A stretch of DNA of 56,803 nt. Source: Candidatus Parcubacteria bacterium. Its GTDB lineage: Bacteria > Patescibacteriota > Minisyncoccia > Phycocordibacterales > JAACPR01. Of the stretch, positions 11,973-50,601 are shown one piece after another. The translations under genes and the position numbers were made by a program. A model generated the notes under the pieces. That model had not been told where the DNA came from and made no database searches. It was given only the letters and a program-made list of their open reading frames with translations. Every line of letters starts with the position of its first letter. Position 1 is the stretch's first letter. The stretch lies in contig JBDLUA010000024.1 in NCBI GenBank assembly GCA_039805545.1, forward strand, positions 1-56,803, read 5' to 3'.

Positions 11973-12043
11973 TGCCCAATCGTCTAATGGTAGGACTACG
12001 GTTTTTGGTACCGTCTATCGAGGTTCGAATCCTTGTTGGGCAG
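11973..12043 (+). tRNA. tRNA-Gln (anticodon UUG)
   Basis: Manual cloverleaf: acceptor tgcccaa/ttgggca, D-stem gtct/ggac, anticodon stem acggt/accgt with loop ttTTGgt, T-arm cgagg-ttcgaat-ccttg, discriminator G. CCA is not encoded. Confidence 0.9.
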
Positions 12044-12141
12044 CAGTCTAGTACAAAGTATCGGATGACCGAGGTGGATCATTGAAGAATAAGGATATTT
12101 TGGAAACTTTTTAAAAATAGTGAAAACAGTCCTAGACGGGT
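12041..12141 (+). repeat. direct repeat copy 1 (att-like), starting in the last 3 nt of tRNA-Gln
   Basis: 101 nt with 3 substitutions versus 14174-14274. Weaker similarity continues to about 12175. Confidence 0.8.
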
Positions 12142-16011: not shown

Positions 16012-17343
16012 TCATTCCAAAATTATTTTCTTATTAATCACAATCACCTTACTCTTAAAAGATTGCAATACTTCTCGCTTTTCTTGAAGTGTTCCTTCTT
16101 TGAGTAGATATTTCACATACGATTTCAAATCCGTTTTCTTTTGAGTTGTGATCTCTGTTTCAGTTGATCCTAATATCTTATTTCTAAACTCACTAAACCT
16201 ATTCATCTCTTGTTCAAGTTTTTGTTTTATGCCGATCATGTTTAAATCAATTTTATCTACGATATCTAGTAATTGTTTTATAAGTTCTTCTTCTCTTATG
16301 TATTGATTCTTACATTGTTTGTTATTAAATCTCGTGCATCCGTAGTAGATATATTTTGCTGTGCTTCCGTCTATTCGTGATTTGTATTTTTCTTCTGCAG
16401 TAATTCCTGAATTGCACATTCCACATTTCATTAATCTTGTGAAGGCGAATTCTTTATTTGTTTTGATAATATCTTTTGAAATGGTCATCTTCTCTCGAAC
16501 TTTTTTATATAGTTCCTGACTAATGATTGGTTCGTGTTTTCCTACGTACCACTTGCTACTTCCTCGAGGATATTCAATCAGCCCACAGTAGAATGCATTT
16601 TGAAGAATAGTATGAACATTGCTGAGTGTGAGAAACTTTCCATTCTTTGTTTTAAATTTTGCATCTTCCTTTAACCATTTAAACACTCTTCTCCCACTCA
16701 TTTTTTCATATGCTACTTTTTCAAACATCATCCGAATAATATGCGATCGTTGAGGATCTAAAATTACCTGACACTTCATATTTCTGTCTGGGTTGGTGAG
16801 ATATCCAGTAGGGGCGACAGAAGGCCATAATCCCATTTCAATTCTATTTCGTAGTCCTCGTTTTACGTTCACACTTTTATTATCATTTTCCAACTTTGCT
16901 TGAGAGCCAAGAATCATGAAGAGGAATTTTTCACTGGGATTGTTGGTGAATTTCTGTCCGTATGTTCGAACTTCTATAATCAACTTTTGATCCATCAAAT
17001 CTACGATTGCTCCCAAGTCACCTGCATTTCTACTCAGTCGGTCAGGATGCCATGCAAGGATCGCATTAAATCTTTGTTCTTTGATCTCTCTGATAAGCTC
17101 ATTAAATACAGGTCTTTGTCCTGTGTCTTTTGCTGAGTGGGATTCTCTTTTAATTTCGACCACATCAAGCCCTTCTCGTTGTGCCATTTGAAGCATCTCT
17201 TTAATTTGTGAATCTATCGAAAGGGCTTGTTTCTCGTCAGATTCACTTGATTTTCTGGTATACAGGCAGTATTTCAGCCTCTCTGGGACTTGTAATGGTT
17301 GTACCTCGTCAGTCGTCACTTGTAGCGGATTTTGCGTTTGCAT
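16012..17343 (-). CDS. large serine recombinase
   Basis: Resolvase catalytic domain (YTRKSSESDEKQALSIDSQ, DRLSRN), a recombinase domain and a Cys-rich zinc ribbon (CGMCNSG...YYGC). Confidence 0.9.
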   Translation of the reverse strand: MQTQNPLQVTTDEVQPLQVPERLKYCLYTRKSSESDEKQALSIDSQIKEMLQMAQREGLDVVEIKRESHSAKDTGQRPVFNELIREIKEQRFNAILAWHPDRLSRNAGDLGAIVDLMDQKLIIEVRTYGQKFTNNPSEKFLFMILGSQAKLENDNKSVNVKRGLRNRIEMGLWPSVAPTGYLTNPDRNMKCQVILDPQRSHIIRMMFEKVAYEKMSGRRVFKWLKEDAKFKTKNGKFLTLSNVHTILQNAFYCGLIEYPRGSSKWYVGKHEPIISQELYKKVREKMTISKDIIKTNKEFAFTRLMKCGMCNSGITAEEKYKSRIDGSTAKYIYYGCTRFNNKQCKNQYIREEELIKQLLDIVDKIDLNMIGIKQKLEQEMNRFSEFRNKILGSTETEITTQKKTDLKSYVKYLLKEGTLQEKREVLQSFKSKVIVINKKIILE

Positions 17344-21173: not shown

Positions 21174-21269
21174 AAGTGAATTAAGTATTAAATTACTAGA
21201 TATTTGATAATATAATTATGGGTGCCCTTATACTATATTATTTACTTTGTGAATATATGAGGGTACTGT

Positions 21270-21353
21270 CGAGGTGTGGTGAAATTGGTATACACGAACA
21301 TTTACCAAATGTTTCCCTATATAGGGGTGCGGGTTCAAATCCCGTCACCTAAA
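21270..21353 (+). ncRNA. tRNA-Leu-like (type II, long variable arm) element with anticodon-position ACC and a defective acceptor stem
   Basis: D-arm ggtgaaattggtatacac and T-arm gcggg-ttcaaat-cccgt resemble tRNA-Leu. Anticodon stem aacat/atgtt with loop ttACCaa. Variable arm ccctatatagggg. Only 5 of 7 acceptor pairs form. The 3' strand can instead pair with 21376-21384. Confidence 0.5.
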
Positions 21354-21425
21354 GTTTGGAAAAACTTCTTATCTTTAGGTGGCGAATTTTATTGAGGATT
21401 GAGAACTAAATAAGAAATGACAGTT

Positions 21426-25014: not shown

Positions 25015-25611
25015 TTATTCAATTATCTTCTTGTCCTTCAGTTTCGTCAGAAGTTTTCCGAGCTCGACCATTCTGTCGGGATCTTCCTCTTCTTTTTTCA
25101 CTCCTTTCCCAAAAAGTGTTTTATGGAGATTGTTCTCAATCTCTATGATTTCAGGATCGGTTGATTTAAGGAAGCTTTCTCGCAACTCTTTCTCACGAAG
25201 CAGAGTTCCATGATAACCCATATTCCGTAGTGCTGTTGCAAGAAGGAGATTCTCTTCTTTTGAAAGTTCTCGTTTGTCTTTCATTTCAATTATGATCTTA
25301 GGGTTAAAGTCTGGATCATGATGTTTGAGCCAGAAAATAATTGCTGTTAATGTTCCTTCGTTTATGTGCTTTACCAATTGTGACTTTGCAATATCATTCA
25401 TGGTTAACTTTCCTGTTATAAGAGCATCATTAGTTGCTTCTCTAAACTCATCGTCAGTATCACGCCACTTGTAGTATGTTGCTTTGGGAACTCCTGCTTT
25501 TTGGTACGCATAGGTTGCGATGGGGAGTTCCTTTAGGTTTTCAATGACACGTTTCTTTTGTGCTTTAGTTGCAACTGCTTCTCGTGGTGGAGCTTTTACC
25601 TTTTTCTTCAT
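25015..25611 (-). CDS. small HTH protein (phage terminase-small-subunit-like or regulator-like)
   Basis: 198 aa with the basic N-terminal HTH-like segment ATYAYQKAGVPKATYYKWR. Translationally coupled to the upstream ParB-MTase gene. Confidence 0.35.
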   Translation of the reverse strand: MKKKVKAPPREAVATKAQKKRVIENLKELPIATYAYQKAGVPKATYYKWRDTDDEFREATNDALITGKLTMNDIAKSQLVKHINEGTLTAIIFWLKHHDPDFNPKIIIEMKDKRELSKEENLLLATALRNMGYHGTLLREKELRESFLKSTDPEIIEIENNLHKTLFGKGVKKEEEDPDRMVELGKLLTKLKDKKIIE

Positions 25612-25612
25612 A

Positions 25613-26950
25613 CTAGTTTATTTTCTTAGCCTTCTTTCCTGTCGCTTTCTCCCATCTCTTAATAATCACTTCCGTATAGACTGGAGACTTTTCCATGATT
25701 CTACATTTCCTCCCAATCTTGATACAACTAACCAGAGTTGATCCTGAACCACCGAAGGGTTCCAATACAATATCGTCACGTTTGGTTAGAACTTTGATGT
25801 AGGGGATAAGAAGTTCAACAGGTTTGGTCCCAAAGATAATATCTTGTCCTGAAGATTTTTTATCTGATGCAACATGTGAGATAAAGTCAGTCGGACAAAT
25901 CTTTTTTCCTTTGGCGTATGACTCCCAATGAGGTTTTCCAGATGTTGCATAGATTGCATTCTCATACTCGTTCTGAAAAAGTTCTTCTTCTGGGTCAAGA
26001 TTAAGTGGAACATTTCCTTTTGAACCAACAAGTGCGATGTCTGTCTTGTTGAAGAATTTGTACTTAGAAGAAAACCCTTGCATTCGATTTGAAACATGCC
26101 ACGTGATCGTGTTCCGATACTTCCAGTGCTTCTCGAGTGCATTCCAAATGATTCGAAGGTTCTTTGGGTTTTCAAATATAATAATAGAGAAATCTGGTTT
26201 TTGGACTAATGCAACATTTGCCATCCATAAATCACTGAAGTCATCAGGAAGACTTTCTGTCTCTAAATATCTTCGATTTTTCTTTGCACCAAAACCAGTT
26301 GTGACTCCATCTTTTTGTTTTGTTTTTCCTTTCAAATAATCCAAAATGTAGGGTGGGTCTGTCATCACCATGTCCGCCTGTACTCCATCCATTAGTTTGA
26401 GCATGTCTGATTCGATTGTACTATCCCCACACATAAGGATAGAGCCATCAATCTCATACTTGTCTCCTTTTTGTACACTGATGTTTTTGATGTCCAATTT
26501 ATTGAGCTCCTTTTGAAGATCAAATTGCTCAGGAGTAGGGTCGGGAGCAAATATCTCATCTAACTCCTGTGAATCAAATCCAATCGAATTAAGAAGTGAT
26601 TCATCAAATTGAGCTAACAGTTCGAGATCAAACTCTCCTTGGTTCTTGTGTAAGCGTAGGTTGAGTTCCTGTTCGAGTTTAATGTCTGGGATGTTCACGA
26701 ATACGACAGGTACTGTTTCAAACCCAAGTTCTTTTGCGATTCTCAATCTGGCGTGTCCTCCAATCAATATCCCTTGTCTCTCTGGTGCTCCGTTAACAAC
26801 CAAACTATCTACGAAACCAAAAGTTTGAATACTCTGTTTGATTCCGTCGAGTGCTTCCTTTGAAAACTTTTTCGGATTGTATGTGTTTTCTTTGATGTCG
26901 GTAATAGGAACATATTGAACGGTAAGTTGTGAGTTGTGTTTTGTTGTCAT
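25613..26950 (-). CDS. ParB-like nuclease domain fused to a DNA methyltransferase
   Basis: ParB/Srx N-terminus (IGGHARLRIAKELG). DPPY motif (MTDPPYILDY). SAM-binding EPFGGSGST near the C-terminus. Confidence 0.85.
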   Translation of the reverse strand: MTTKHNSQLTVQYVPITDIKENTYNPKKFSKEALDGIKQSIQTFGFVDSLVVNGAPERQGILIGGHARLRIAKELGFETVPVVFVNIPDIKLEQELNLRLHKNQGEFDLELLAQFDESLLNSIGFDSQELDEIFAPDPTPEQFDLQKELNKLDIKNISVQKGDKYEIDGSILMCGDSTIESDMLKLMDGVQADMVMTDPPYILDYLKGKTKQKDGVTTGFGAKKNRRYLETESLPDDFSDLWMANVALVQKPDFSIIIFENPKNLRIIWNALEKHWKYRNTITWHVSNRMQGFSSKYKFFNKTDIALVGSKGNVPLNLDPEEELFQNEYENAIYATSGKPHWESYAKGKKICPTDFISHVASDKKSSGQDIIFGTKPVELLIPYIKVLTKRDDIVLEPFGGSGSTLVSCIKIGRKCRIMEKSPVYTEVIIKRWEKATGKKAKKIN

Positions 26951-27479
26951 GACTAATTTATTTATTTGCTAAATTAGTTCTCTCATAGGTGAGTACACTT
27001 TATATTAAAAAAGTACACTCAAAGAAACACCAGAACATTCTTTTTAAAATGCTCTGGTATGCCTTCAAATGTACTTTCTTGTTTCAAACTTTTTGCTATG
27101 GGTGGCACCATCTAAAACCGTTTAATATACATTTCATTCGATATCCGCTTATCTTGGTTTGCATTTGGTACGAGGACCTCCGAGAAAGGAATAACTACTT
27201 CTGGGGAAGTAAGGAAATCTTATTTATGGAAGAACTATTTTCTAGTATAAATACCTTATTAAAATATTCAAGCAAAAAAACATTTCATTTTGTAAATTGT
27301 TTATGAATAGTGTAAATAGGTTTTTTGAAGAATAAACAAATAAATGATTGTTGCTGTCAGTACTGTAAATTGAACAAAAAAGAGGGGTGTGGATATCTAA
27401 AACATAGACCACAGAGTATGTATTTAGTCCAGAGCAAAAGGACTTCGCAAGACCCTGAAGTTAAGCTATTATGTCAAAG

Positions 27480-27509
27480 ATGACATTTATCTGATATGAT
27501 AAATGTCAT
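27480..27509. repeat. perfect 12-bp inverted repeat with a 6-nt spacer
   Basis: atgacatttatc-tgatat-gataaatgtcat. Confidence 0.7.
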
Positions 27510-27526
27510 ACAACAAAGACCTAACC

Positions 27527-27727
27527 CCTAGAAAACCCTTAGTTCTCTAGGATATGGTCGGAATAAAACCGCTACAGCATAGAAGACTCCTCGTCAGAGT
27601 CGCTGTAGCGGTCATGTATTCGAAAGAGTATATGGGTAATCGAAAGATTATCGCGATGGCGGGGAGTCTTCTGTCCCGACTCACACTCTTCGCTGATTAT
27701 TATCAGTATTAAAAAACCGCTACAGTG
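27527..27727 (+). promoter_or_regulatory. structured leader RNA upstream of HNH/radical-SAM genes, with alternative pairings that include the start codon
   Basis: accgctacag at 27568-27577 and again at 27716-27725, the latter overlapping the GTG start at 27725. Its complement lies at 27602-27612. gaagactcc 27582-27590 pairs with ggagtcttc 27663-27671. Two GAAA-tetraloop hairpins (27617-27630, 27637-27650), one with a G-U pair that forms only on the + strand. Confidence 0.45.
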
Positions 27728-28162
27728 AAATTTGAATACCCTGAAGATCAGGAGTTTTTTGCTCATCTACTTACAGATGGAGATATAGAGAAACTAAATA
27801 AAGAATGTTCCGTTCTGTTTGATTTTAGACATCAAGGAATTAAACGTTGGGAGTTTAATAAGACTCGTAAAAAGCTTCTTGAAGAATTAGTTAAAAAACA
27901 TAATAGTATCTGCCAATTAAAAATCCATCCTGAATGTACTAATGACAATGGATTTGAGCCAGATCACATCATCCCAATTTCTTCCAATATTCTTAATAAA
28001 GAATTACGTAATCTAAAAGGGGGAAACGGATTAAAAACTCTCACTCAAGATTTTGGTTCAAACGATATTCGAAATCTAACATTAGCTTGCAAGAAGTGTA
28101 ATGCGAGAAAGAAGAATAAGATTTTGACAGGAGCTGTTTTGAGGAGGCTTTTGGGGTTGTAA
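27725..28162 (+). CDS. HNH endonuclease
   Basis: 145 aa with a GTG start. EPDHIIPIS ... NLTLACKKCNARK HNH/zinc motif. Confidence 0.75.
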   Translation: MKFEYPEDQEFFAHLLTDGDIEKLNKECSVLFDFRHQGIKRWEFNKTRKKLLEELVKKHNSICQLKIHPECTNDNGFEPDHIIPISSNILNKELRNLKGGNGLKTLTQDFGSNDIRNLTLACKKCNARKKNKILTGAVLRRLLGL

Positions 28163-28225: not shown

Positions 28226-29833
28226 ATGGAAAAATTTAAACCAGACCAGCAAGATATAAGCCCTGAATCATCTTTAGAAAAAGGTAGAGAAACAATGCTT
28301 TTTTGCCGTCCTGATGAATTGTCCGGTCGCTTAAGTGAATTTAGCGCACAATCTTCTCCTGAAGAATTTTTTAAAAAAGTATGTAGTGATGCTGACATGT
28401 TGGCACAGGTATCCTATTGGGAAAAATGGCTTACAAGAGAGCAAGCATCTTTACTAGAAAGAACTAGGCTAGAGCAGAGAAATGAAGTACGAAAGAAGGA
28501 ACTTCCTTTAGGTTTAGAAACTAGATTTGATGAAGAAGAACGTGAATTGATTTTTTCTAACGTCTCAGCCATTCAATTATCAGTTGGTTGCTCAATCGGA
28601 TGTCCTCATTGTGGTTTTGATGCAATAAAAGGTGTTAAAGAAGAAATACCTTATGAACAACTTAATAATATGTTTCAACGTTATGGAAAGATGATACAAA
28701 AAGGTGAACCGTTTTTGTACTGGGCTTCCGAACCTTCAGATTATTACTCAAAAGATAAGGATGGAAATGAAAAAAGATATAAAGATGTTCATGAACTTGC
28801 GGTTAATGAAGCAGGATATGTGCCTGCGGTAACAACACAAAATCATGACAAATCTTGGATCGATCAAATGAGAGAAATAAAACGTAAACAAGAGTTAATT
28901 TCTAGCTCAGAATTTAGAATTAGTACACACGGCCTTTCGGACGATGAATTATTGGAACTCGAGGAACAAAACGAAGAAGAAAATCTTCGCATCATTGATT
29001 CAAAAATGAATTCAGGAGTGAGAAAAAAAGTAATTGGAATGGGTATAACTCAAAAGAAACAAGAAAATTTAGACTCAGATATACCAAAATCAGGAATAGC
29101 TTGTGTGGATGGTATTTTAATTACACCAAGAGGCCTTTATGGCATGGTTGTTGTTCCTATATCAAAAGAATTTCCTCAAGGTCAAATCATTATGCCACTT
29201 CATGAAATATCTGATCGACCTATTAAAGTAGGAGATAACATGAAAGAAGTCTTAACTCGGGCAATTGCAGAAACAAAATATTCTCATCAGGGCGCAGGAC
29301 TTGATGAAGGTCAGCAATACCAAAAATTTAATAAATCCCATGTCCGACGACATGCTGACGTATTCACTGGTGAGAATACTCATTCAGTTTTTTTTGATGG
29401 AATGACGGGGGATGTTATTGACTCAATCCTTTTACTAAAAGAACCTGAACAATATTTACAGGAAAACGAGGACAGAATAATTTCTCTTGCAGGAAAAGAA
29501 AAAAGCATAGAAGTTTCATTAAAAGAAATAATCACCATTATTTTTAGTTTGCTACGAAAAATCAGAAAAGAAATCCCTTACTTTGATCATAAAGTAAATG
29601 ACGTTTATCGATCAAAAATAATTATAGATGAATTGTTTGAAGCTAGTAAAGAATCTGATATAGAAAAGGTCGTTGATTTAATTAAAAGAATTAAGAGGCA
29701 CGTACAAACTTCTTCAGTATTCGCAAAAATGGATAACCTGCAAGTTGAAAAAAGTGCTGAAGATTTTAAAAAAAACCTCGATATGATTTTGGAAGTAGTG
29801 TCAAAGGTAGAGGAAGTTTCAAAAGGGGAGTAA
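28226..29833 (+). CDS. radical SAM-like protein (CxxxCxxC) with a long unknown C-terminal region
   Basis: SVGCSIGCPHCGF at about residues 118-130. 535 aa. Lies 63 nt downstream of the HNH gene. Confidence 0.55.
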   Translation: MEKFKPDQQDISPESSLEKGRETMLFCRPDELSGRLSEFSAQSSPEEFFKKVCSDADMLAQVSYWEKWLTREQASLLERTRLEQRNEVRKKELPLGLETRFDEEERELIFSNVSAIQLSVGCSIGCPHCGFDAIKGVKEEIPYEQLNNMFQRYGKMIQKGEPFLYWASEPSDYYSKDKDGNEKRYKDVHELAVNEAGYVPAVTTQNHDKSWIDQMREIKRKQELISSSEFRISTHGLSDDELLELEEQNEEENLRIIDSKMNSGVRKKVIGMGITQKKQENLDSDIPKSGIACVDGILITPRGLYGMVVVPISKEFPQGQIIMPLHEISDRPIKVGDNMKEVLTRAIAETKYSHQGAGLDEGQQYQKFNKSHVRRHADVFTGENTHSVFFDGMTGDVIDSILLLKEPEQYLQENEDRIISLAGKEKSIEVSLKEIITIIFSLLRKIRKEIPYFDHKVNDVYRSKIIIDELFEASKESDIEKVVDLIKRIKRHVQTSSVFAKMDNLQVEKSAEDFKKNLDMILEVVSKVEEVSKGE

Positions 29834-30106: not shown

Positions 30107-31177
30107 TTGAAACAAATTTTAGAACATAAGTATACACCCTTTGTTGCATTAGGACTTTTTGTTTTGTTTGTAATTCTTTCTCAAATTCCTGCAACTATTG
30201 AATATGCGGCCTCAATTCCTACTGCAGCTACCTCATTAGATATTCCAACAGATACTTCAAATGTTTTAGATGTACAAAAGTATAATGAAAAAATTTTGAG
30301 TCTTGCAAATCTTCCTGTTCGTACAGGAACTTCAACTGCAACAAGTACAATAAATTCTCTGTGGCCACCTAAGACACCCATGCCTCTTGCGGGAGCGATA
30401 TTACCTTTTAAGCGTGTGGTTGCATATTATGGAAACTTATATTCAAAAGGTATGGGTGTGCTCGGAGAATATCCAGAAGAACAAATGCTACAAATGCTCC
30501 AGGCTGAAGTAAAAAAATGGGAAGCTGCAGATCCTGAAACTCCTGTTCAGCCAGCTTTGCATTATATTGCTTCTACTGCCCAGGCAAGTCCAGGAAAAGA
30601 AGGTCTGTATACTTTGAGAATGCCAGACAGTGAAATAGACAAAGTTCTTAAAATGGCCAAAAAATCTAATGCAATTGTATTTCTTGATTTACAGATTGGG
30701 CTCAGTAACGTACCAAAAGAAATTCCTTATATTGAAAAATATTTAAAAATGCCAAATGTACACCTTGGGCTTGATCCAGAATTTTCTATGAAAACAGGGA
30801 AGGCACCCGGAACTGTAATCGGAACTATGGATGCAACTGATATAAATTATGCTGCTAATTATCTTGCAAAATTAGTGAAAGAAAATAATCTTCCACCAAA
30901 AATATTAGTGATTCATCGTTTTACTCAAGATATGGTTACGAATTATAAAAAAATAACACCACTACCTGAAGTACAAATTGTAATGGATATGGACGGATGG
31001 GGATTCAAAGCAAAAAAAATAAATACATACAATCAAGTAATTTATCCTGAACCTGTACAGTTCACCGGATTTAAATTGTTTTATAAAAATGATCTTAAAG
31101 GTGAAGAAGGTGGTCTTATGACTCCTCATGAAGTATTGCAACTTTCTCCACAACCAATTTATATTCAGTATCAGTAA
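30107..31177 (+). CDS. membrane-anchored/exported protein of unknown function
   Basis: 356 aa with a TTG start and an N-terminal hydrophobic helix. No motif I can name confidently. Confidence 0.5.
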   Translation: MKQILEHKYTPFVALGLFVLFVILSQIPATIEYAASIPTAATSLDIPTDTSNVLDVQKYNEKILSLANLPVRTGTSTATSTINSLWPPKTPMPLAGAILPFKRVVAYYGNLYSKGMGVLGEYPEEQMLQMLQAEVKKWEAADPETPVQPALHYIASTAQASPGKEGLYTLRMPDSEIDKVLKMAKKSNAIVFLDLQIGLSNVPKEIPYIEKYLKMPNVHLGLDPEFSMKTGKAPGTVIGTMDATDINYAANYLAKLVKENNLPPKILVIHRFTQDMVTNYKKITPLPEVQIVMDMDGWGFKAKKINTYNQVIYPEPVQFTGFKLFYKNDLKGEEGGLMTPHEVLQLSPQPIYIQYQ

Positions 31178-38213: not shown

Positions 38214-41200
38214 ATGCGCAACACTTATATTAAAAAAATAATATTCTCACTTGGAATATTTTTTGCTTTTTCTTTTGCACTAAAAGCCGACGCAGCAGTA
38301 CTTCTTCCTGGAAACATTTCTTCTTGTGGTGAACTCGCAGCCCCAGGTACATACACCCTCACACAAAACGTATCGGGCGGAACAGATACCTGCTTTACCA
38401 TTTCATCAGACAACGTAGTACTTAATGGAGGAGGATTCACAATATCAGGATCAGGAGCTGTTGCGATTGATGCTCGTGCTCGAACAGGTGGTCCATCAGG
38501 TTCTCTCGCAGAAGGTGCACATGCATATACAAACCTTGTTCTTAATGATCTAAACATTTCAGGATACACTACCGGATTAAACATTTCAGGAAACGCAGAC
38601 ACAACAGGAAGTGGTCAAAATAACGGAAACGGAGGAGATGCAGGAGATGTCGCAATCTTTTATTCATACATTGGTTCTATTATTGCAGATGGAGGACAAA
38701 CAACAGCAGAGTCTTATGGAGGAGTTGGAGGAAACATTGCCTTCACTGATACAAATCTAAATATTGCATCATCAACACTTTCTGCAAAAGGAGGAGTGGG
38801 AACATCAGGTAATAGAGGAAGTGATGGGGGACTTGATTTAAATTATTCAGGTACCCTTACAAGAACAAACCTAACTTTGTCTGCACTTGCGTATTTGAAT
38901 GATAATACAACAGAGTATACTTCATATGTTGGAGGAACATGGCCTATTACAAATACTTCACTTTCAACGTGTGGAACTCTCTATGCAACAACCACTACCA
39001 CCTTTACTCTTACACAAGATCTCACTTCATCAGGTACTTGTTTTTATATAAATGGAGATAACATAACAATAGACGGAGCAGGATATACCATCACTCACAC
39101 TTCATCCTCAACAGATTTTGCGGTACAGGCGACAGAAAATAATTACAGTACATTTACTGTCAAGGATCTTGATTTTGTAGAGTATGCTAATACTATAAAT
39201 TCTGATCCATCATTGGTATTGCGATTTAATAGTACTTTAGATCTTTCAGAAGAACACATCGAAGCAAGTACACTTATTGTAGAATCATTAGGATCTTTAA
39301 TATATACAGATGCCTCAGTCGCAATATCTACTGAGTTAACAATAAATAATTATGAGATTGGACCTTATACTGGAAATCTTAGTTTGTTATACAATACAGG
39401 GATATGGACCGAACAGACTGACTCAAGTACCGCACAATGGTCTTCAATCACCTCATCAGCCGATGGAACCAAACTTGCGGCAGTTTTGGCTGGCGGATAT
39501 ATCTATACTTCTACAGACTCTGGTATAACATGGACCCAACAGACAGGTGCAGGAATAGCAAATTGGAACTCAATCACCTCATCAGCAGATGGGACCAAAC
39601 TTGCGGCCACTAATGGCTCAGGTTATATATATACTTCAACTGATGGTGGTGTAACTTGGATTGAAAGAAAGTATATTGCTGGTGTAAATTGGACCACTAT
39701 TACATCATCAGCAGATGGGACCAAACTTGCGGCAGCGGCTCAATCTGGATACATCTACACTTCAACAGATGGAGGTTTAAATTGGGTAGCACAAACCAAT
39801 GCTGGTGGACAAAGTTGGACATCCATCACTTCATCAGCTGATGGAAATAAACTTGTAGTGGTTAGTTCAAGTGATTATACTCCTTTGGCTTCAACTGATG
39901 GTGGTGTGACGTGGACATCTTATCCTAATATAGGTGTTCAAGGAAATAATGTATCTATCACTTCATCAGCCGATGGGACCAAGCTTGCACTAGTTAGTGC
40001 TGGAGGATATATAAACATCTCAACAGATGGAGGTGCAAATTGGACAGAGCAGACGTCTGTAGGAGCAAAAAACTGGTCCTCCATCACCTCATCAGCAGAT
40101 GGAATGAAACTTGCAGCAGCTAATGGTTCAGGTTATATATATATCTCAACAGATGGAGGTACAACTTGGGCAGAGCAAACTTCTGCAGGGGCAAGAAGCT
40201 GGACTACCATCACTTCATCAGCCGATGGGACCAAGCTTGCTGCGTCTGGATTATACGAATACATCTATACTTTTTTCAGTTTACCACAACAAACAAATAT
40301 TATTCCAATATCCCCAATTGCATCCTCAACAGTAGCAACATGGAATCCTTTTGTTATTTGGTCAAATACAGCAGATTGCTATTATTCATATGACAATTGG
40401 GTATCAACAAGTACTGCAAACTGTGCACTTAAAGGTTCTGATATCTCTGCACCAATTTCAAACGGTGCTCAAACTCTCTATCTAAAAGCTTTTGGAAATG
40501 GAAATGTTACTGAAAAGATTTTAGAGTTTATCTCCTCTTATATACCTCAAGATACAGATATCGATATACAATCACCAGAATCAAATATCAGATACTTAAA
40601 TAGTAATTGGTCTCCCGTTGTCGACTATGACATTACTAACTTAAACACACTTACATATTGTGCATATTCATATGATAATTTCTCAACAGAGATAGAGGTT
40701 GATTGTTCTGAAGGTGGAACAGACATTCTTCCTCCAGAAACACAAGGAAATTCTACACTTTATATAAAAACTATTGATGATGACCTACAAGAAGATGTTA
40801 ATTCAATCTCTTTCATCTATGATTTTATTTGGGTTGTTCAAGAAAGCGGTAATTATTCAGGATATTGGAAAGCTATCACCTCATCAACCGATGGAATGAA
40901 TCTTGCAGCGTATAATGAGAATACTGGGTATATCTACACATCCACAGACGGAGGTGTGACATGGATCGAGCAAACTTCTGCAGGAGCAAGAAATTGGACC
41001 TCCATCACCTCGTCAGCCGATGGGACCAAGCTTGCGGCTGTGGCGCAATACGAATATGTATATACCTCGACAGACGGAGGTGTAACATGGACCGAACAAA
41101 CAAGTGCGGGTGCAAAAGAGTGGATGTCAATCATTTCATCAGCAGATGGAACCAAGCTTGCTGCAGCGGCTGCTGTTGACAAGATATACACCTCAGCAGA

Positions 41201-44200
41201 CGGAGGTGTAACGTGGACCGAACAAAATATTATTTCTTGTGGTTGGTCTTCTATCACCTCATCAGCCGATGGGACCAAGCTTGCTGCGGCATGTGATCAA
41301 GGTGGTGAAGGAATTATATATACCTCAACAGATAGTGGTGTGACATGGACAGAGCAGTCAAGTGCAGGTTTCAGAAGTTGGCGTGATATCACCTCATCCG
41401 CAGATGGAATGAAACTTGCCGCAGTTGATGGAAGTTATGGATATGTCTATACCTCGACAGACGGAGGCGTGACATGGACTGAACGTGGTAGTTCTGGTGC
41501 ACGAATTTGGACCTCCATCACCTCATCAGCAGATGGAATGAAACTTGCCGCAGTTGATGGTAATTATGGGTATGTCTACACCTCAGCAGACGGAGGTGTG
41601 ACATGGACAGAACAAACAAGTGCAGGAGCAAAATCCTGGAACTCGATTGCCTCATCAGCAGACGGAATGAATCTTGCAGTAACCTATAGTGATAGTGGGT
41701 ATGTGTATACACTTAGAAAATCTCAAGATGTAATTGATATATCTATTACTTCACCTATTGCTAATTTATTAATTGATGGAGGTTCTTGGGCTCCTGAAGT
41801 AAATTGGTCTCTTGCTACAAATTGTTATTATTCGTACGACAACTTTACATCAACAAGTACTGCAAACTGTGCACTTGATGGATCTGATATAGATCCTCCT
41901 AATACAGAAGGAGAACAAACATTATCAATACGAGCTATTTCATATAATGGAACAATAGGTAATGCAAGTGTTACTTTTACATATGGTAGTTGGACCGAGC
42001 AAATAGGAGCAGGAGAAGGAAATTGGACCTCCATCACCTCATCAGCCGATGGGACCAAGCTTGCTGCTACTAATAACGGAGGGTATATCTATACTTCAAC
42101 AGACGGAGGTGTGACATGGACAGAGCAGACTGGTGCATCTTCGAGAAGTTGGACATCTATCACCTCATCAGCCGATGGGACCAAGCTTGCTGCTACTGAA
42201 GTTGGAGGATTTATTTTTACCTCAATAGATAGCGGTGTGACATGGACAGAGCAAATGGGTAGTGGAGCAGGAAACTGGATCTCTATCACCTCATCCGCAG
42301 ATGGAACCAAGCTTGCTGCTGGTGTAATTGGTGATTATATCTACACCTCAACAGACGGAGGTGTAACATGGACAGGGCAGACCAGTATCGGACAAGGTGG
42401 TTGGAATTCAATTGATTCATCAGCCGATGGAATGAGCCTCATTACTACAAATTATTATTCTGGGTATATCTACACTTCAACAGATGGAGGTGTGACTTGG
42501 ACCGAACAGACAGATGCAGGCGCACGTGCTTGGACTTCTGTAACCTCGTCAGCCGATGGAACAAAATTTACTGCGGTTGCACAAGGTGAATATATCTATA
42601 CCTCAACAGACGGAGGTATAACCTGGATAGAAAGAACTTCTGCTGGAGCAAGAAATTGGACCTCCATCACCTCATCAGCCGATGGAACAAAGCTTACTGC
42701 TATTGCAAATGGAGATTATGTCTACACCTCAACAGATGGAGGTGTGACTTGGACCGAACAGACAAGCGCAGGTGCACGAGGTTGGACTTCTGTAACAACC
42801 TCTGCATATGGAGATAAAATTGCTGTAGTTGGAGAAATTACATACATATATACAAAATCAATAACAAATAGTTATTCTGTGTCTGTATATATGAATCAGT
42901 CCATTTCAACTTGGAATCCATATGTACTCTGGGATTCTTCTGAGACATGTTTTTATTCATATGATAATTTCTCAACTCAGACTGAGGTTGATTGTTCTCA
43001 ATATGGTTTTGATATTTTGTTGCCTAATCAAGCAGGAGAGTCAACACTCTATGTTAAAGGTATAGACTCACAAGATACTATTTCAATTGCATCATCAACT
43101 TTTTCAATACAAGGACAATATTTCTGCGGTACATCAGACAATGATTGGGCCAATCTTTCAAATTGGTATGATGATGACTCATGTACTATACAAAGTGCAT
43201 CTGTGCCAACATCTCAAACACCTATTGTTGAACTCAAAGGAACTGTATCACCAATCATAGAATCAGGTGATGCACTTCCAAGACTTATCAACTCTACTGG
43301 TCTCACGGGCCCTGCTTCAACTACCGGAATTATTTTCTCTGGATCTTCAATAAATACTTCAAAAATAGTTGGAAACGTAACTTTCCAAGATACTTCATAT
43401 AACACCGGAACTATTACGGGTAATGTAATATACGAAGAAGCAATAGGTGGCACATTTACACTTTCGAACTCTATGAAGTGGGGAGCAGGTACAATCGGAG
43501 GAACTATTACAGGAGGTGATTCAAATCCAATCACACATCTCATATTTAATGATTCAAGTTCAAACGAAGGAACATTCTCAGGTACAGCAACATTTAATGA
43601 ACTTTCTTCAAACAATGGTTCAATTACAGGAAATGTGACTTTCAATGGAACAACATTTAGATTAGGAACAGTAAATGGTACTGCAACATTAAACGGATTT
43701 GCACAAATAATTCAAGGGGTTAACAGTGTTGTGAACTTATTTAAGCAACTCACCACATCAAAAGATACGATCTATCTTCAAGCAGGAAGCACACTTAATG
43801 TGTCAGGACTCTTTACACTTCTTGGATATAATCAAAACAACCTCCTTACAGTGCGTTCAACAACACCTGGAACATATGCAAACATTGGAATCAATGGTAC
43901 GGCAGATATGAACTTCCTCCGACTACGAGATATTAGAAATACAGGAAGTGTATTAGATCTTTCTTCTCAAACTGTATTTAATGATGGACATAATTCAGGT
44001 TTCACATTCCCTTCAAATTCATCTTCAGGAAACCGTGGTGGTATTACAGGAAACTACACAGCACCAGCTCTACCGCCTTCACGAGGAGGTAGTACTGGCG
44101 GCAACACGGGTGGGGGCGATACAGGAGGAGGTGATACAGGTGGTGGAAATTCAGGAGGCGGTCTTCTTAGAAATATTGTACGAGGGTCTATTAAACCTCT

Positions 44201-44888
44201 TAATCTAACACCACTTCAAGATTTCAATCCTCTTAACCCAAATTTCAGTACAAAGAATATTGGAGCAACAATAATTCCGAATCCATTGCAAGGCCTCAAA
44301 GCACCAGGACTCATCAACCTAGTTCAATTACCAACACAATTCCTTACAAACATTTCAAAATTCCTATTTGCACCAATTCCAAAAACTATTGATGATGCTT
44401 TATCTTCAACGCCAAAGTTAGCTGCATATATAACATCAGCAGGTGTTTCGAGAGAGCAAGATCTTGCAATGCTTGCTACAAATCCAGTGCTTCTTAAAAA
44501 CCCATTGTCTGACGAATCAACACCACCAGGCCTCTTTATCATCTATTCAGGCGAGACACAATTAAACTCATATGCAACTTATGATAAATCTGCAGGTGGA
44601 CTTGCACAATTAGTTAAGGTTTCTCCAAATCAATCTCTAAGAATAAACCTTGTACCGCAATCAACAGGAGCAGTATCTGCAACCTATCTTGGGCAAAATA
44701 TACAATTCAATCAAGGACAATTATTTGCAACAACATACATCCAAACTCCTTCAACTGGAGGAAGATATATTCTTAAATCCCCATCTTCTCCTGTGCCACT
44801 TCTTGTTGAGGTGGTAGAACCAATGAAGGTTGAGGAGGTGAAGAAAGAAAATATCTTTATAAAATTCTGGAAGTGGTTAACAAGTTAA
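38214..44888 (+). CDS. giant (2224 aa) surface protein: beta-helix-like N-terminus, three arrays of Asp-box/BNR propeller repeats, Gly-rich linker and C-terminal domain
   Basis: Signal/TM anchor. About 30 copies of the ~40-aa unit W.SITSSADGTKLAA....YIYTSTDGGVTWTEQT (SxDxGxTW Asp-box). Spacer modules with YSYDNF..C motifs. GGDTGGGDTGGGNSGGG tract. Confidence 0.85.
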   Translation: MRNTYIKKIIFSLGIFFAFSFALKADAAVLLPGNISSCGELAAPGTYTLTQNVSGGTDTCFTISSDNVVLNGGGFTISGSGAVAIDARARTGGPSGSLAEGAHAYTNLVLNDLNISGYTTGLNISGNADTTGSGQNNGNGGDAGDVAIFYSYIGSIIADGGQTTAESYGGVGGNIAFTDTNLNIASSTLSAKGGVGTSGNRGSDGGLDLNYSGTLTRTNLTLSALAYLNDNTTEYTSYVGGTWPITNTSLSTCGTLYATTTTTFTLTQDLTSSGTCFYINGDNITIDGAGYTITHTSSSTDFAVQATENNYSTFTVKDLDFVEYANTINSDPSLVLRFNSTLDLSEEHIEASTLIVESLGSLIYTDASVAISTELTINNYEIGPYTGNLSLLYNTGIWTEQTDSSTAQWSSITSSADGTKLAAVLAGGYIYTSTDSGITWTQQTGAGIANWNSITSSADGTKLAATNGSGYIYTSTDGGVTWIERKYIAGVNWTTITSSADGTKLAAAAQSGYIYTSTDGGLNWVAQTNAGGQSWTSITSSADGNKLVVVSSSDYTPLASTDGGVTWTSYPNIGVQGNNVSITSSADGTKLALVSAGGYINISTDGGANWTEQTSVGAKNWSSITSSADGMKLAAANGSGYIYISTDGGTTWAEQTSAGARSWTTITSSADGTKLAASGLYEYIYTFFSLPQQTNIIPISPIASSTVATWNPFVIWSNTADCYYSYDNWVSTSTANCALKGSDISAPISNGAQTLYLKAFGNGNVTEKILEFISSYIPQDTDIDIQSPESNIRYLNSNWSPVVDYDITNLNTLTYCAYSYDNFSTEIEVDCSEGGTDILPPETQGNSTLYIKTIDDDLQEDVNSISFIYDFIWVVQESGNYSGYWKAITSSTDGMNLAAYNENTGYIYTSTDGGVTWIEQTSAGARNWTSITSSADGTKLAAVAQYEYVYTSTDGGVTWTEQTSAGAKEWMSIISSADGTKLAAAAAVDKIYTSADGGVTWTEQNIISCGWSSITSSADGTKLAAACDQGGEGIIYTSTDSGVTWTEQSSAGFRSWRDITSSADGMKLAAVDGSYGYVYTSTDGGVTWTERGSSGARIWTSITSSADGMKLAAVDGNYGYVYTSADGGVTWTEQTSAGAKSWNSIASSADGMNLAVTYSDSGYVYTLRKSQDVIDISITSPIANLLIDGGSWAPEVNWSLATNCYYSYDNFTSTSTANCALDGSDIDPPNTEGEQTLSIRAISYNGTIGNASVTFTYGSWTEQIGAGEGNWTSITSSADGTKLAATNNGGYIYTSTDGGVTWTEQTGASSRSWTSITSSADGTKLAATEVGGFIFTSIDSGVTWTEQMGSGAGNWISITSSADGTKLAAGVIGDYIYTSTDGGVTWTGQTSIGQGGWNSIDSSADGMSLITTNYYSGYIYTSTDGGVTWTEQTDAGARAWTSVTSSADGTKFTAVAQGEYIYTSTDGGITWIERTSAGARNWTSITSSADGTKLTAIANGDYVYTSTDGGVTWTEQTSAGARGWTSVTTSAYGDKIAVVGEITYIYTKSITNSYSVSVYMNQSISTWNPYVLWDSSETCFYSYDNFSTQTEVDCSQYGFDILLPNQAGESTLYVKGIDSQDTISIASSTFSIQGQYFCGTSDNDWANLSNWYDDDSCTIQSASVPTSQTPIVELKGTVSPIIESGDALPRLINSTGLTGPASTTGIIFSGSSINTSKIVGNVTFQDTSYNTGTITGNVIYEEAIGGTFTLSNSMKWGAGTIGGTITGGDSNPITHLIFNDSSSNEGTFSGTATFNELSSNNGSITGNVTFNGTTFRLGTVNGTATLNGFAQIIQGVNSVVNLFKQLTTSKDTIYLQAGSTLNVSGLFTLLGYNQNNLLTVRSTTPGTYANIGINGTADMNFLRLRDIRNTGSVLDLSSQTVFNDGHNSGFTFPSNSSSGNRGGITGNYTAPALPPSRGGSTGGNTGGGDTGGGDTGGGNSGGGLLRNIVRGSIKPLNLTPLQDFNPLNPNFSTKNIGATIIPNPLQGLKAPGLINLVQLPTQFLTNISKFLFAPIPKTIDDALSSTPKLAAYITSAGVSREQDLAMLATNPVLLKNPLSDESTPPGLFIIYSGETQLNSYATYDKSAGGLAQLVKVSPNQSLRINLVPQSTGAVSATYLGQNIQFNQGQLFATTYIQTPSTGGRYILKSPSSPVPLLVEVVEPMKVEEVKKENIFIKFWKWLTS

Positions 44889-47491: not shown

Positions 47492-49783
47492 ATGGCAAAA
47501 ACAAAACCAAAAGCAAAAGTTAAAGTAAAATCTGCGTTGGATAAAATACAAAAAAGAAACGGAGAGGTAATGCCTTTTGATGAAAAAAGAATCACAAGAG
47601 CAATATTTCGAGCAATGCAACAAACAGGAGAGGGTGCTGATGCTGAAGCAGAAAAGGTAATGCAGTCTGTTGTAAAAGCTCTTGAAGAAATTTCAAAACA
47701 ATCAAAAGAAAAAAAGTTTGTTCCACATGTTGAGTTAATTCAAGATGTTGTAGAACGACAACTTCTTGCACTTAACTATTTTTCAACTGCAAAATCATAT
47801 ATTTTGTATAGACAAGAACGAGCAGAGGTTAGGACAAAAGTTGGTTTTGTGCCGGAAAAAGTAAAAGAACTTGTAAATGAAAGTAAGCAATACTTCAGGA
47901 ACTCTCTTGCAGAATTTGTATATTATCGAACATATGCAAAATGGATACACGAAGAAGGAAGACGAGAAACATGGATTGAAACAATCGATCGATATGTTGA
48001 TTTCATGAAGGATAATCTCAATGGTAAGTTAACAAAAGCTGAGTATGAAGAAATAAGACAATACATACTTTCTCAACAAGCACTCCCATCAATGCGGCTT
48101 ATGCAATTCTCTGGTAAAGCAGCACGAAAAACAAATGTGTGTGCATATAACTGTTCATTTATTGCACCAAGAACTATTCAAGATTTTGCAGAAATTATTT
48201 ATATCTCAATGTGTGGTACAGGAGTTGGATATACTGTAGAGAGTTCAAATATTCAGGCACTTCCACAAATTCAAAGACAGACAGGAAAAAAACTTCCTAC
48301 ACATGTTGTTGCCGACAGTAAGGAGGGGTGGGCTGATGCATTTGCACTTGGTATGAAGACTTGGTTTGAAGGAAACGATATTGATTTTGATTACTCGCTT
48401 CTTCGACCAGCTGGAGCACGGCTTAATACTATGGGAGGAAAGTCCTCTGGACCAGATCCGCTTAAGTCGCTCATTGCATTCACAAAAGAACGGGTACTTG
48501 CACGACAAGGACGAAGACTTACAAACCTTGATGCCCATGATATTATTTGTAAGATTGGAGAATGTGTAGTATCAGGAGGAGTTCGACGAAGTGCACTCAT
48601 CTCACTTTCAGATCTTGATGATGAAGCAATTCGAGACTCAAAGAAAGGACAATTTTATCTTACCGAAGGACAGCGAATGCTTGCAAATAACTCTGCTGTA
48701 TATTTACAAAAACCATCAGTTGAAGAATTTCTTGATGAGTGGACAGCACTTGTAAAGTCAGGATCAGGAGAACGAGGAATCTTTAATCGAGGTGGTCTTG
48801 CACAAACTCTTCCAAAGCGAAGACTAGATCAATTTGAAGATGGAATATATCCAAACTGGGGAACTAATCCTTGTGGAGAAATCATCCTTCAATCAAAACA
48901 ATTTTGTAACTTGAGTGAAGTTGTTGCTCGAGCAGAGGATACAGAAGAAACTTTGATAAAAAAGATAAGAATCGCAGCTATTCTTGGTACATACCAATCA
49001 ACACTTACATACTTCCCATATCTTTCAAAAGAATGGAAAAAGAATTGTGAAAAAGAAAGACTCCTCGGTGTTTCTATTACGGGTCAATGGGATTCAAAAG
49101 TTGCACGAGATCCTAAAGTACTTGAGAAATTAAAACAAGTTACAATTGAAACAAATAAAAAATACGCTAAGAAATTTGGAATTACACCTTCAACATGTAT
49201 TACATGTGTAAAACCTTCAGGGAATGCATCTCAAACAGTAGACTGTTCATCAGGAATGCACGCACGATATGCGCCGTACTATATTCGACGAGTTCGAATT
49301 TCTTCTACAGACGCACTCTTTAAGATGCTTCGAGACCAAGGAGTTCCATATCATCCTGAAGTTGGACAAACAATGGAAGATGCAAATACATTTGTAATTG
49401 AATTCCCTGTGAAGGCTCCAAAGGGTGCTATCTGTAAAGATGATCTTTCTGCGATTGATCAACTTGAACACTGGAAAGTTGTAAAAGTTCACTATACAGA
49501 ACATAATCCATCAGTAACTATTTCAGTCGGAGAAGATGAATGGATTGCGGTAGCTAACTGGGTGTACGAGAACTGGGATCTTGTTGGAGGACTTTCATTC
49601 CTTCCACGATCAAACCATGTATATCAACTTGCTCCATATGAAGCTATTACAAAAGAGAAGTATGAAGAAATGGCAAGACAGTTTGAGCACATTGATTTCT
49701 CTAAGATTGTGACATATGAAAAAGTTGATGAAACAGAAGTGAAGAAAGAACTTGCATGTGTTGGTGGACTTTGTGAAATCTAA
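47492..49783 (+). CDS. nrdJ: adenosylcobalamin-dependent (class II) ribonucleotide reductase
   Basis: 763 aa with an N-terminal ATP-cone (KRNGEVMPFDEKRITRAI), the NPCGEI active-site loop and class II architecture. Confidence 0.9.
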   Translation: MAKTKPKAKVKVKSALDKIQKRNGEVMPFDEKRITRAIFRAMQQTGEGADAEAEKVMQSVVKALEEISKQSKEKKFVPHVELIQDVVERQLLALNYFSTAKSYILYRQERAEVRTKVGFVPEKVKELVNESKQYFRNSLAEFVYYRTYAKWIHEEGRRETWIETIDRYVDFMKDNLNGKLTKAEYEEIRQYILSQQALPSMRLMQFSGKAARKTNVCAYNCSFIAPRTIQDFAEIIYISMCGTGVGYTVESSNIQALPQIQRQTGKKLPTHVVADSKEGWADAFALGMKTWFEGNDIDFDYSLLRPAGARLNTMGGKSSGPDPLKSLIAFTKERVLARQGRRLTNLDAHDIICKIGECVVSGGVRRSALISLSDLDDEAIRDSKKGQFYLTEGQRMLANNSAVYLQKPSVEEFLDEWTALVKSGSGERGIFNRGGLAQTLPKRRLDQFEDGIYPNWGTNPCGEIILQSKQFCNLSEVVARAEDTEETLIKKIRIAAILGTYQSTLTYFPYLSKEWKKNCEKERLLGVSITGQWDSKVARDPKVLEKLKQVTIETNKKYAKKFGITPSTCITCVKPSGNASQTVDCSSGMHARYAPYYIRRVRISSTDALFKMLRDQGVPYHPEVGQTMEDANTFVIEFPVKAPKGAICKDDLSAIDQLEHWKVVKVHYTEHNPSVTISVGEDEWIAVANWVYENWDLVGGLSFLPRSNHVYQLAPYEAITKEKYEEMARQFEHIDFSKIVTYEKVDETEVKKELACVGGLCEI

Positions 49784-50439: not shown

Positions 50440-50601
50440 AATTCAATCATATATACAGGGAAGTGAGGTGAAATTCCTCCACAGTGCCGCTACGGTTAAA
50501 GTCCGATTACTATATATATGTTCATTAATCCCGAGCAGGAATTTCGATACAATGTATTGTCTCGTCGGCATATTCCTCTCATAAAGAGGTTTTTTATTTT
50601 T
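50440..50601 (+). promoter_or_regulatory. cobalamin riboswitch-like leader with a terminator expression platform
   Basis: acAGGGAAgtgAGGTGaAAttCCtccaCaGtgCCGCtACgGTtaaAGTCCG (50455-50505) resembles the B12 aptamer core. Hairpin cctct-cataa-agagg (50575-50589) plus T-run 50590-50601, just before the ATG at 50602. Confidence 0.5.

Follow-up and report, generated by a model that had tools for sequence, protein, structure and literature searches.

The window analysed here is a stretch of 56,803 nucleotides from a Candidatus Parcubacteria bacterium (GenBank assembly GCA_039805545.1, contig JBDLUA010000024.1), in which a 145-aa HNH endonuclease is encoded on the plus strand, a ParB_N-N6/N4 DNA methyltransferase is encoded divergently on the minus strand, and a structured RNA leader runs up to the start codon of the HNH gene. 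An initial annotation had described this leader as an RNA with mutually exclusive pairings that could sequester the HNH start codon, and had recognized in it no known riboswitch class. A scan with the Rfam covariance models identified positions 27518-27652 of the plus strand as a full-length LOOT RNA (RF03000), with 64.7 bits against a gathering score of 46.4 (E = 6e-10) and a match spanning model positions 1-121 of 121; the window contains a single copy. The earlier statement therefore stands insofar as no known riboswitch class matches and no function has been assigned, but the family is a known one, and the element is a new member of it.

The LOOT motif stems from a survey of 224 candidate RNAs (Weinberg et al., 2017, PMC5737381). 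Rfam lists it as a metagenome-based family of type 'Gene; sRNA' (small RNA), and no functional study of LOOT was found in the literature, taken without the supplement of the 2017 survey. Like the Rfam family, the RNA in the window has the P3 stem, the main stem with its apical hairpin, and two tandem tetraloop hairpins (hp1 and hp2). These helices are kept by compensatory changes among related loci, and the 3' hairpins carry tetraloops of the GNRA type: the loop of hp1 is GAAA in all aligned loci, and that of hp2 varies, being GAAA, GCAA or GUAA in most. When 17 homologous loci were tested against Rfam, all 17 were full-length LOOT RNAs (54.9-90.6 bits). The plus strand also folds more stably than shuffled sequence (z = -5.85). 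Conservation begins about 75 nt 5' of the Rfam model and runs on past its 3' end. The model stops at 27652, whereas the element in the window extends 5' through a hairpin at 27480-27509, possibly preceded by a promoter, and 3' through three further segments, termed Y', Y2 and X2, to the start codon. In Rfam the family comes from metagenomes; here it is found in Patescibacteria genomes from freshwater, with a second, mutually exclusive fold.

All of the repeats and hairpins first described were recovered, several as parts of larger structures. The repeat ACCGCTACAG occurs at 27568 and 27716 as had been reported, within a repeat that is really 13 nt long (AAAACCGCTACAG, at 27565 and 27713), and its reverse complement occurs once, at 27603. 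The segments GAAGACTCC at 27582 and GGAGTCTTC at 27663 were confirmed; the 9-bp pairing of GAAGACUCC with GGAGUCUUC is present and forms only the centre of a continuous 18-bp helix between 27579-27596 and 27657-27674. Likewise, a hairpin placed at 27527-27551 exists as the tip of the longer LOOT P3 stem (27518-27559). Two hairpins with cGAAAg loops at 27617-27630 and 27637-27650 and a 12-bp palindrome at 27480-27509 were found again, and the specificity for the plus strand that had been read from G-U pairs was borne out. The 145-aa HNH open reading frame (ORF) has the GTG at 27725 as its first start codon, and the independent gene call in an 88%-identical relative, locus L161, picks the same GTG. 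The central claim, that of mutually exclusive pairings, is correct: the 3' strand CUGUAGCGGU can pair with either of two segments, and one of these lies over the start codon. The features and their partners in the two alternative folds, states 1 and 2, are collected in Table 1.

Table 1. Features of the LOOT leader and of the adjoining genes in the window, with pairing partners in the two proposed folds.
Feature	Positions	Strand	State 1 partner	State 2 partner	Remarks
Conserved 5' block	27444..27472	+			T(T/A)C(G/A)CA-N17-TA(A/G)GGT; TTCGCA ... TATTAT in the window; candidate promoter (-35/-10) or RNA 5' end
P2 hairpin	27480..27509	+			12 bp; 5' of the Rfam LOOT model; in all loci, sequence differing
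P3 stem	27518..27559	+			LOOT model positions 1-47; from the Rfam alignment
X1 (ACCGCUACAGC)	27568..27578	+	X' (27602-27612), 11 bp		5' strand of the main LOOT stem
Y1	27579..27596	+	y', locally (27585-27589 with 27597-27601; Rfam apical hairpin)	Y' (27657-27674), long-range, 18 bp	
y' (GAGUC)	27597..27601	+	Y1		3' strand of the apical mini-hairpin in the Rfam LOOT fold
X' (CGCUGUAGCGGU)	27601..27612	+	X1 (27568-27578; Rfam main stem)	X2 (27716-27727; ends in GUG)	Shared 'anti-start' strand
hp1	27613..27634	+			9-bp hairpin, GAAA loop; two G-U pairs make it specific to the plus strand
hp2	27635..27652	+			7-bp hairpin, GAAA loop in the window; from the Rfam alignment
Y' (UGGCGGGGAGUCUUCUGU)	27657..27674	+	Y2 (27678-27682), local hairpin	Y1, 18 bp	Outside the Rfam model
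Y2 (GACUC)	27678..27682	+	Y' (27664-27668), local hairpin		Second copy of the Y1 core
Tail hairpin (CUGAUUAUUAUCAG)	27693..27706	+			Small, A/U-rich; clade-specific
X2 (ACCGCUACAGUG)	27716..27727	+		X' (27601-27612), 12 bp	Copy of X1 ending in the GUG start codon 27725-27727
HNH endonuclease gene	27725..28162	+			145 aa; Pfam HNH; putative target of the leader in the window
ParB_N-N6/N4 DNA methyltransferase gene	25613..26950	-			445 aa; conserved partner of the LOOT-nuclease unit
HTH protein gene	25015..25611	-			198 aa; resembles terminase small subunit; co-transcribed and conserved with the methyltransferase gene

The most probable reading of this arrangement, by a clear margin over an even chance, is that the LOOT leader is a bistable cis-acting switch acting on translation initiation of the HNH mRNA. 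State 1, the Rfam LOOT fold, would combine X1:X', Y1:y', hp1, hp2 and Y':Y2 and would leave X2 and the GUG single-stranded; it is the presumed ON state, with the A-rich start region, which lacks a Shine-Dalgarno sequence, open to ribosomes. In state 2, Y' would invade Y1 to form the 18-bp helix and X' would be released from X1, and the freed X' would form 12 bp with X2 that take in the whole GUG, giving the presumed OFF state. The gap between X1 and Y1 is 1 nt and that between Y1 and X' is 6 nt, so that on geometric grounds a full Y1:Y' helix should exclude X1:X'. A Shine-Dalgarno sequence is absent in most loci and the start region is A-rich, and hiding this region should therefore block initiation. 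As X1:X' is transcribed earlier, new transcripts probably begin in state 1 and then relax, or are driven, to state 2. Such a switch would restrict the amount of a potentially toxic nuclease, or set when it is made, in a module resembling a restriction-modification system.

The layout is that of a riboswitch-type expression platform, with mutually exclusive pairings overlapping the translation start, and the two alternatives are close in energy: the duplex energies are -20.9 kcal/mol for X':X1 and -20.4 kcal/mol for X':X2, and for the whole leader of the window we estimate -93.4 kcal/mol for state 1 and -89.0 plus -20.4 kcal/mol, before a pseudoknot penalty, for state 2. The two states have energies of similar size in 24 loci, that of the window and 23 others. 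The signals of a transcription attenuator were not found, as 27440-27725 contains no terminator-like site and the only such site on the plus strand (27740-27752) falls within the HNH ORF. A leader peptide was considered and rejected: the ORF that starts at an invariant ATGG ranges from 2 to 169 aa in length and is not conserved, and there is no conserved upstream ORF.

To compare loci, 160 genome and metagenome loci were retrieved with an alignment of HNH homologs, and further loci were taken from contigs encoding individual HNH homologs. A sequence profile of the leader located the same RNA 5' of the HNH homolog, on the same strand, in 18 of the initial 160 loci, and in all seven distinct loci added next. 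In total, 27 related loci, mostly from Patescibacteria, carry the RNA, and in every one the element reaches the next start codon. Covariation was evaluated in an alignment fitted to the covariance model (A6) and in an ungapped block alignment (A7), because register shifts in MAFFT alignments break the X1:X' pairs. All of the pairings covary in the homologs. For the state 1 helices, 94.7% of the cells in A6 are paired, with changes on both sides in 33 of 37 pairs, a level reached by none of 500 shuffles and far above slid controls (33-42%). Among the individual helices in A6, X1:X' has changes on both sides in 10 of its 11 pairs (96% of cells paired), the Y1:y' mini-hairpin is 88% paired with compensatory changes in four of five pairs, hp1 is 98% paired (8/9 compensatory), and Y':Y2, helix 6 of that alignment, is 90% paired (4/5). 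The Y2 sequences themselves covary across loci (GACUC, AAGACUC, CUUCCC, ACCCG).

The pairings of the second fold are kept in the same way. RNAalifold predicted Y1:Y' on a plain, sequence-only MAFFT alignment, in which pairing of this helix reaches 95% and compensatory changes are seen in 14 of 17 pairs; none of 500 shuffles scored as high, and slid controls gave 42-53%. Close relatives add single compensatory events in P2, hp2 and Y1:Y', such as the T-A to A-T change in P2 of L161 and the A that replaces G27662 of Y' in the same locus and turns a G.U pair into A-U. The X segments exist in about 11 variants (CCGCUACAG, CCGCUAAAG, CCCGCUAGAG, CCGUCCAAAG, CCGUCCAAGG, CCGUGCAAGG, CCUUCCCAG, CGCGAUCAAC, CGCACGACAC, CCCACCACAG and CCUACGCAAA), and X1, X' and X2 change in concert in every locus. 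This three-way covarying 'address' is in itself an unusual evolutionary pattern. In an alignment-free comparison of the first 26 loci (24 full-length and two truncated), the segment of the whole RNA with which the 25-nt start region forms its longest duplex is X' in 25; the exception is L012, where a chance duplex ties with it. The same duplex was the longest in three of three loci that were fetched after this rule had been stated. Cognate X':X2 duplexes average 11.4 bp, compared with 7.2-7.3 bp for non-cognate pairs and shuffled start regions. In A7, pairing in the core of X':X2 is 100%, with compensatory changes in 12 of 14 pairs. The X':X2 helix often exceeds X1:X' in length (13 vs. 10 bp), and the extra pairs covary independently, wobbles included: they are A:U in L092, L164, L004 and L167, G:C in L087 and L083, and G.U in L005, L161 and the window. 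Since X':X2 has a covarying extension of its own, it argues for a pairing in RNA and not for a mere duplication of X1.

The position of X2 follows whichever ORF comes first. In all 27 loci, the end of X2 falls between 3 nt inside the start codon of the first ORF 3' of the RNA and 7 nt ahead of that codon. Seven loci of the first set and several later ones (for example L163, L168 and L170) have an extra ORF between the RNA and the HNH gene, encoding a 119-aa Pmp3/Zn-ribbon protein or a protein of 187 or 201 aa with no assigned function, and in these loci X2 lies at the start of the inserted ORF and not at that of the HNH gene. The rule held in all three loci fetched after it was stated. Of these three, L179 has a known X variant and L178 a new one together with a changed Y pair. 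In L180, LOOT (1728-1954) lies 3' of the HNH gene and leads a gene for a 373-aa PD-(D/E)xK nuclease (PF14281, 30.8 bits) with X2 at the ATG of that gene, and the HNH gene there has no LOOT upstream (L180:1283-3118). LOOT thus appears to be a portable leader for whichever ORF follows first, usually one encoding a nuclease. Upstream of HNH homologs with about 40-53% identity, no LOOT was found with our covariance model R1, and inspection by eye agreed; the RNA is therefore restricted to one sub-clade of HNH proteins, plus L180.

Two observations on the downstream genes were made along the way. The 119-aa ORF, which combines a Pmp3-like membrane segment with Zn-ribbon cysteines, was seen in L001 (3652-4011), L003, L024, L002, L081, L163, L170, L178 and L179; its 11-nt overlap with the start of the HNH gene suggests that the two are translationally coupled. 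In L010, the gene immediately 5' of an HNH homolog is that of a tRNA (3660-4003), seemingly split by a long and structured insertion similar to a group I intron; the LOOT RNA is absent from this locus, and an X2-like AAAAACCCACTAAAG precedes the ATG of the homolog.

Several points weigh against a toggling leader that controls a nuclease. What the loci show is which strands can pair, that these strands covary and that one of the pairings lies over the start codon; covariation shows selection on both partners and is not proof that one molecule toggles between them, and part of the Y1:Y' helix might form alongside X1:X' in a constitutive pseudoknot. State 2 is itself a pseudoknot, for which feasibility and energy are estimates and not rigorous computations. 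A7 was anchored by hand on the X1/X2 repeat and so leans towards the model. All loci except that of the window were fetched via HNH homologs, a sample that leaves the marine LOOT RNAs of the Rfam seed outside, and the link between LOOT and nucleases is for this reason conditional. Rfam types LOOT as an sRNA gene, and the restriction-modification reading is inferred from gene neighbourhood. Transcript evidence was sought, and no RNA run contains the window; in one run, which we took to be RNA by guess, there is a 167-nt contig from a LOOT relative, evidence too weak to be used.

The initial annotation had offered a riboswitch or RNA sensor with ON and OFF states; an ON/OFF leader at the translation start remains the best reading, and the term riboswitch is not supported. 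A small-molecule riboswitch, in which the LOOT fold would be the aptamer and a ligand would lock state 1 or 2 and so set nuclease translation, is unlikely: the layout is that of a classic translational expression platform, the junction nucleotides are highly conserved and the two states are similar in energy, but no known class matches, no binding pocket is evident, and the downstream genes encode nucleases or a small membrane protein and do not form one metabolic pathway, so that nothing in them points to a ligand. Somewhat less improbable, though still doubtful, is a protein-responsive leader, in which the nuclease, the ParB-methyltransferase or the HTH protein would bind LOOT and shift the equilibrium, either as autoregulation or as a control of the kind 'methylase first, nuclease later'. 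Restriction-modification systems need the expression of their nuclease to be delayed, a requirement that such a leader would serve, and the RNA tightly co-occurs with the methyltransferase and HTH genes in either orientation. The same X variant and RNA clade are found, however, with methyltransferases only 30-34% identical to that of the window (L003 and L012 vs. L001), the nuclease of L180 belongs to a different superfamily, and no RNA-binding domain was detected. About as tentative is the proposal that LOOT is a new class of RNA sensor, be it a riboswitch or a switch that responds to a protein or to infection, licensing the translation of restriction or defence nucleases in Patescibacteria only upon a cellular signal, such as self-methylation having been completed, the SAM/SAH status or an attack by phage, with the locus-specific X1/X'/X2 address preventing cross-talk among co-resident copies.

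Readings that do without a cis-acting switch fare worse. LOOT might be a stable trans-acting sRNA, with Y1:Y' as a constitutive pseudoknot or processing stem and X2 as a target on the neighbouring mRNA. The Rfam type and the 18-bp helix, which could serve as a processing site, would suit this proposal, yet the RNA always lies on the same strand immediately 5' of its target ORF with no terminator-like site between them, and the address changes from locus to locus along with its own start region, as pairing in cis predicts; we consider a trans-acting RNA very unlikely. Hardly credible is an explanation at the level of DNA, by which the 13-nt direct repeats, 148 bp apart, would be target-site duplications or recombination sites belonging to a small mobile element, or by which the RNA would be an IscB-like guide for the HNH protein, whose HNH motif scores 21 bits with the IscB model, a weak match (cut-off 175). 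Here a third, inverted copy, X', covaries with both repeats, X2 always abuts a start codon, and the G.U wobbles and X'-specific extensions fit only pairing in plus-strand RNA. The protein, at 145 aa, lacks RuvC and bridge domains, the variable segment would be self-targeting since it has its match in its own locus, and Rfam gave no HEARO match (E up to 1).

The bistable leader on translation initiation can be compared with four known systems. Expression platforms of the thiM TPP riboswitch type likewise have one strand with two exclusive partners, one of which hides the ribosome loading site. They work through anti-SD and anti-anti-SD pairings (SD, Shine-Dalgarno), whereas here the start-codon region itself would be sequestered and no Shine-Dalgarno sequence is involved, the OFF state would be a long-range pseudoknot, the genes encode nucleases, and there is no known ligand or aptamer class. 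The hok mRNA of hok/sok resembles the leader in that the mRNA of a potentially toxic protein has alternative long-range pairings, that refolding sets its competence for translation, and that early co-transcriptional hairpins differ from the final fold. Here, in contrast, neither an antisense RNA nor a signal for 3' processing was found, sequence and structural homology are lacking, and the toxicity of the HNH protein is assumed. IscB proteins contain RuvC, a bridge helix and HNH and have about 400-500 aa. The HEARO or omega RNA of IscB shares with LOOT its place as a large structured RNA directly 5' of a gene with an HNH domain; the lack of a HEARO match and a 145-aa protein without RuvC place the leader outside that group, and its variable segment pairs with the start of its own mRNA instead of acting as a guide. 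The controls of restriction-modification systems, C proteins and antisense RNAs, have the same apparent purpose, to restrain or delay a nuclease paired with a methyltransferase in a mobile defence module. They act on transcription or by antisense RNA, whereas here a structured leader would act on the translation start; to our knowledge, no bistable structured leader on the translation start has been described for restriction-modification systems.

As far as we found, the cis-regulatory mechanism that the comparative evidence would assign to LOOT has not been described before. LOOT has been an orphan since 2017, known from metagenomes, and is now placed in identifiable organisms, the Patescibacteria; its boundaries are extended, it is tied to nuclease genes in defence islands, and with a complete two-state expression platform over the start codon it gains a specific hypothesis that can be tested by mutation. 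If true, the leader would be a rare documented case of a cis-regulatory RNA in the candidate phyla radiation and a new way to keep a restriction-type nuclease in check.

At the 5' end of the element, the conserved block at 27444-27472 is listed by a promoter scan with 9 of 12 matches, and its spacer is exactly 17 nt long in 24 of 24 loci while varying in sequence. Because of this fixed spacing we suspect a promoter, which may start transcription near 27480. RNAalifold predicted no covarying structure in the 5'-most 75 nt on either of two alignments. Within P3, the internal loop CCUAAC / UAUGG has invariant CCUAA and AUGG. The 11-nt receptor of GAAA tetraloops has the motif CCUAAG...UAUGG, which the internal loop resembles, and docking of the GAAA loop of hp1 on this receptor-like loop is possible and would favour state 1. 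Near the 3' end, the tail hairpin is shared with L161, a similar one occurs in L167, and it is absent where the tail is short.

Upstream of the RNA, the intergenic sequence 26951-27442 is 69% conserved with the closest relative only, and it contains no conserved ORF. A pair of segments at 27364-27396, TGTAAATTGAAC ... TGTGGATAT, includes a 9-mer resembling a DnaA box, which in some relatives is a perfect TGTGGATAA or TTATCCACA; the site is kept where the ParB-methyltransferase gene is divergently transcribed and may be a shared operator or promoter. On the minus strand, a 15-bp A/U-rich hairpin followed by a T-run lies at 27027-27060, within the 490 nt that separate the methyltransferase gene from the RNA.

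The genes around the leader suggest a module akin to a restriction-modification system. HNH homologs have 144-146 aa, and the AF2 model of the HNH protein (pLDDT 91.6) gave only weak matches in the PDB, to generic HNH domains (E > 0.06). The methyltransferase matches MTase_II in PADLOC (E = 7e-45), and a homolog of the HTH protein carries a Pfam Sf6_terminase/HTH_23 match. In nearly all loci that are long enough, the methyltransferase gene adjoins the LOOT-nuclease unit on the opposite strand, and the recurring pair, a ParB_N-N6/N4 methyltransferase followed by an HTH protein of about 200 aa, runs divergently from the RNA in some loci and convergently with the nuclease in others. Methyltransferase and endonuclease are thus adjacent and co-inherited, as in Type II restriction-modification systems. 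Because the methyltransferase and HTH protein recur and the HNH protein has no close viral relative, it is reasonable to infer that nuclease, ParB-methyltransferase and HTH protein form a module similar to a restriction-modification system. No close HNH relative was found in the viral contigs of IMG/VR, and the module is therefore not phage-borne in that collection. The idea that X is a recognition site of the methyltransferase or nuclease was rejected, as the same X occurs beside methyltransferases 77% and 30-34% identical to that of the window.

The proposed HNH-radical SAM (rSAM) operon did not survive the comparison of loci. Downstream of the HNH gene, the window encodes a 535-aa rSAM protein with a weak PoyD-like match (28226-29833) and a 356-aa protein with no assigned function (30107-31177). 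Both genes are absent from every other locus fetched by the time of this comparison, and we rejected them as parts of the unit; because no other LOOT locus has them, they have the look of cargo specific to the window. Almost all homologs of the rSAM protein come from Patescibacteria.

Its seryl-tRNA synthetase marks the window as a Patescibacteria (Paceibacter-like) contig, and its source is a freshwater metagenome. The RNA lies within a defence island with a retron-Eco8-like ATPase, a serine recombinase (16012-17343, minus strand), type I restriction-modification genes, Fic and the ParB-methyltransferase. At and within this island, calls were made for tRNA-Gln (11973-12044) and for 'tRNA-Gly, anticodon ACC' (21269-21354); the latter is odd and unusually long (86 nt) and may be mis-typed. 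Elsewhere in the window, a single ORF of 2224 aa occupies 38214-44888, and an AdoCbl-II (cobalamin) riboswitch aptamer at 50448-50520 (48.3 bits) lies 3' of a gene resembling that of B12-dependent ribonucleotide reductase (47492-49783) and just before an ORF at 50518-51150.

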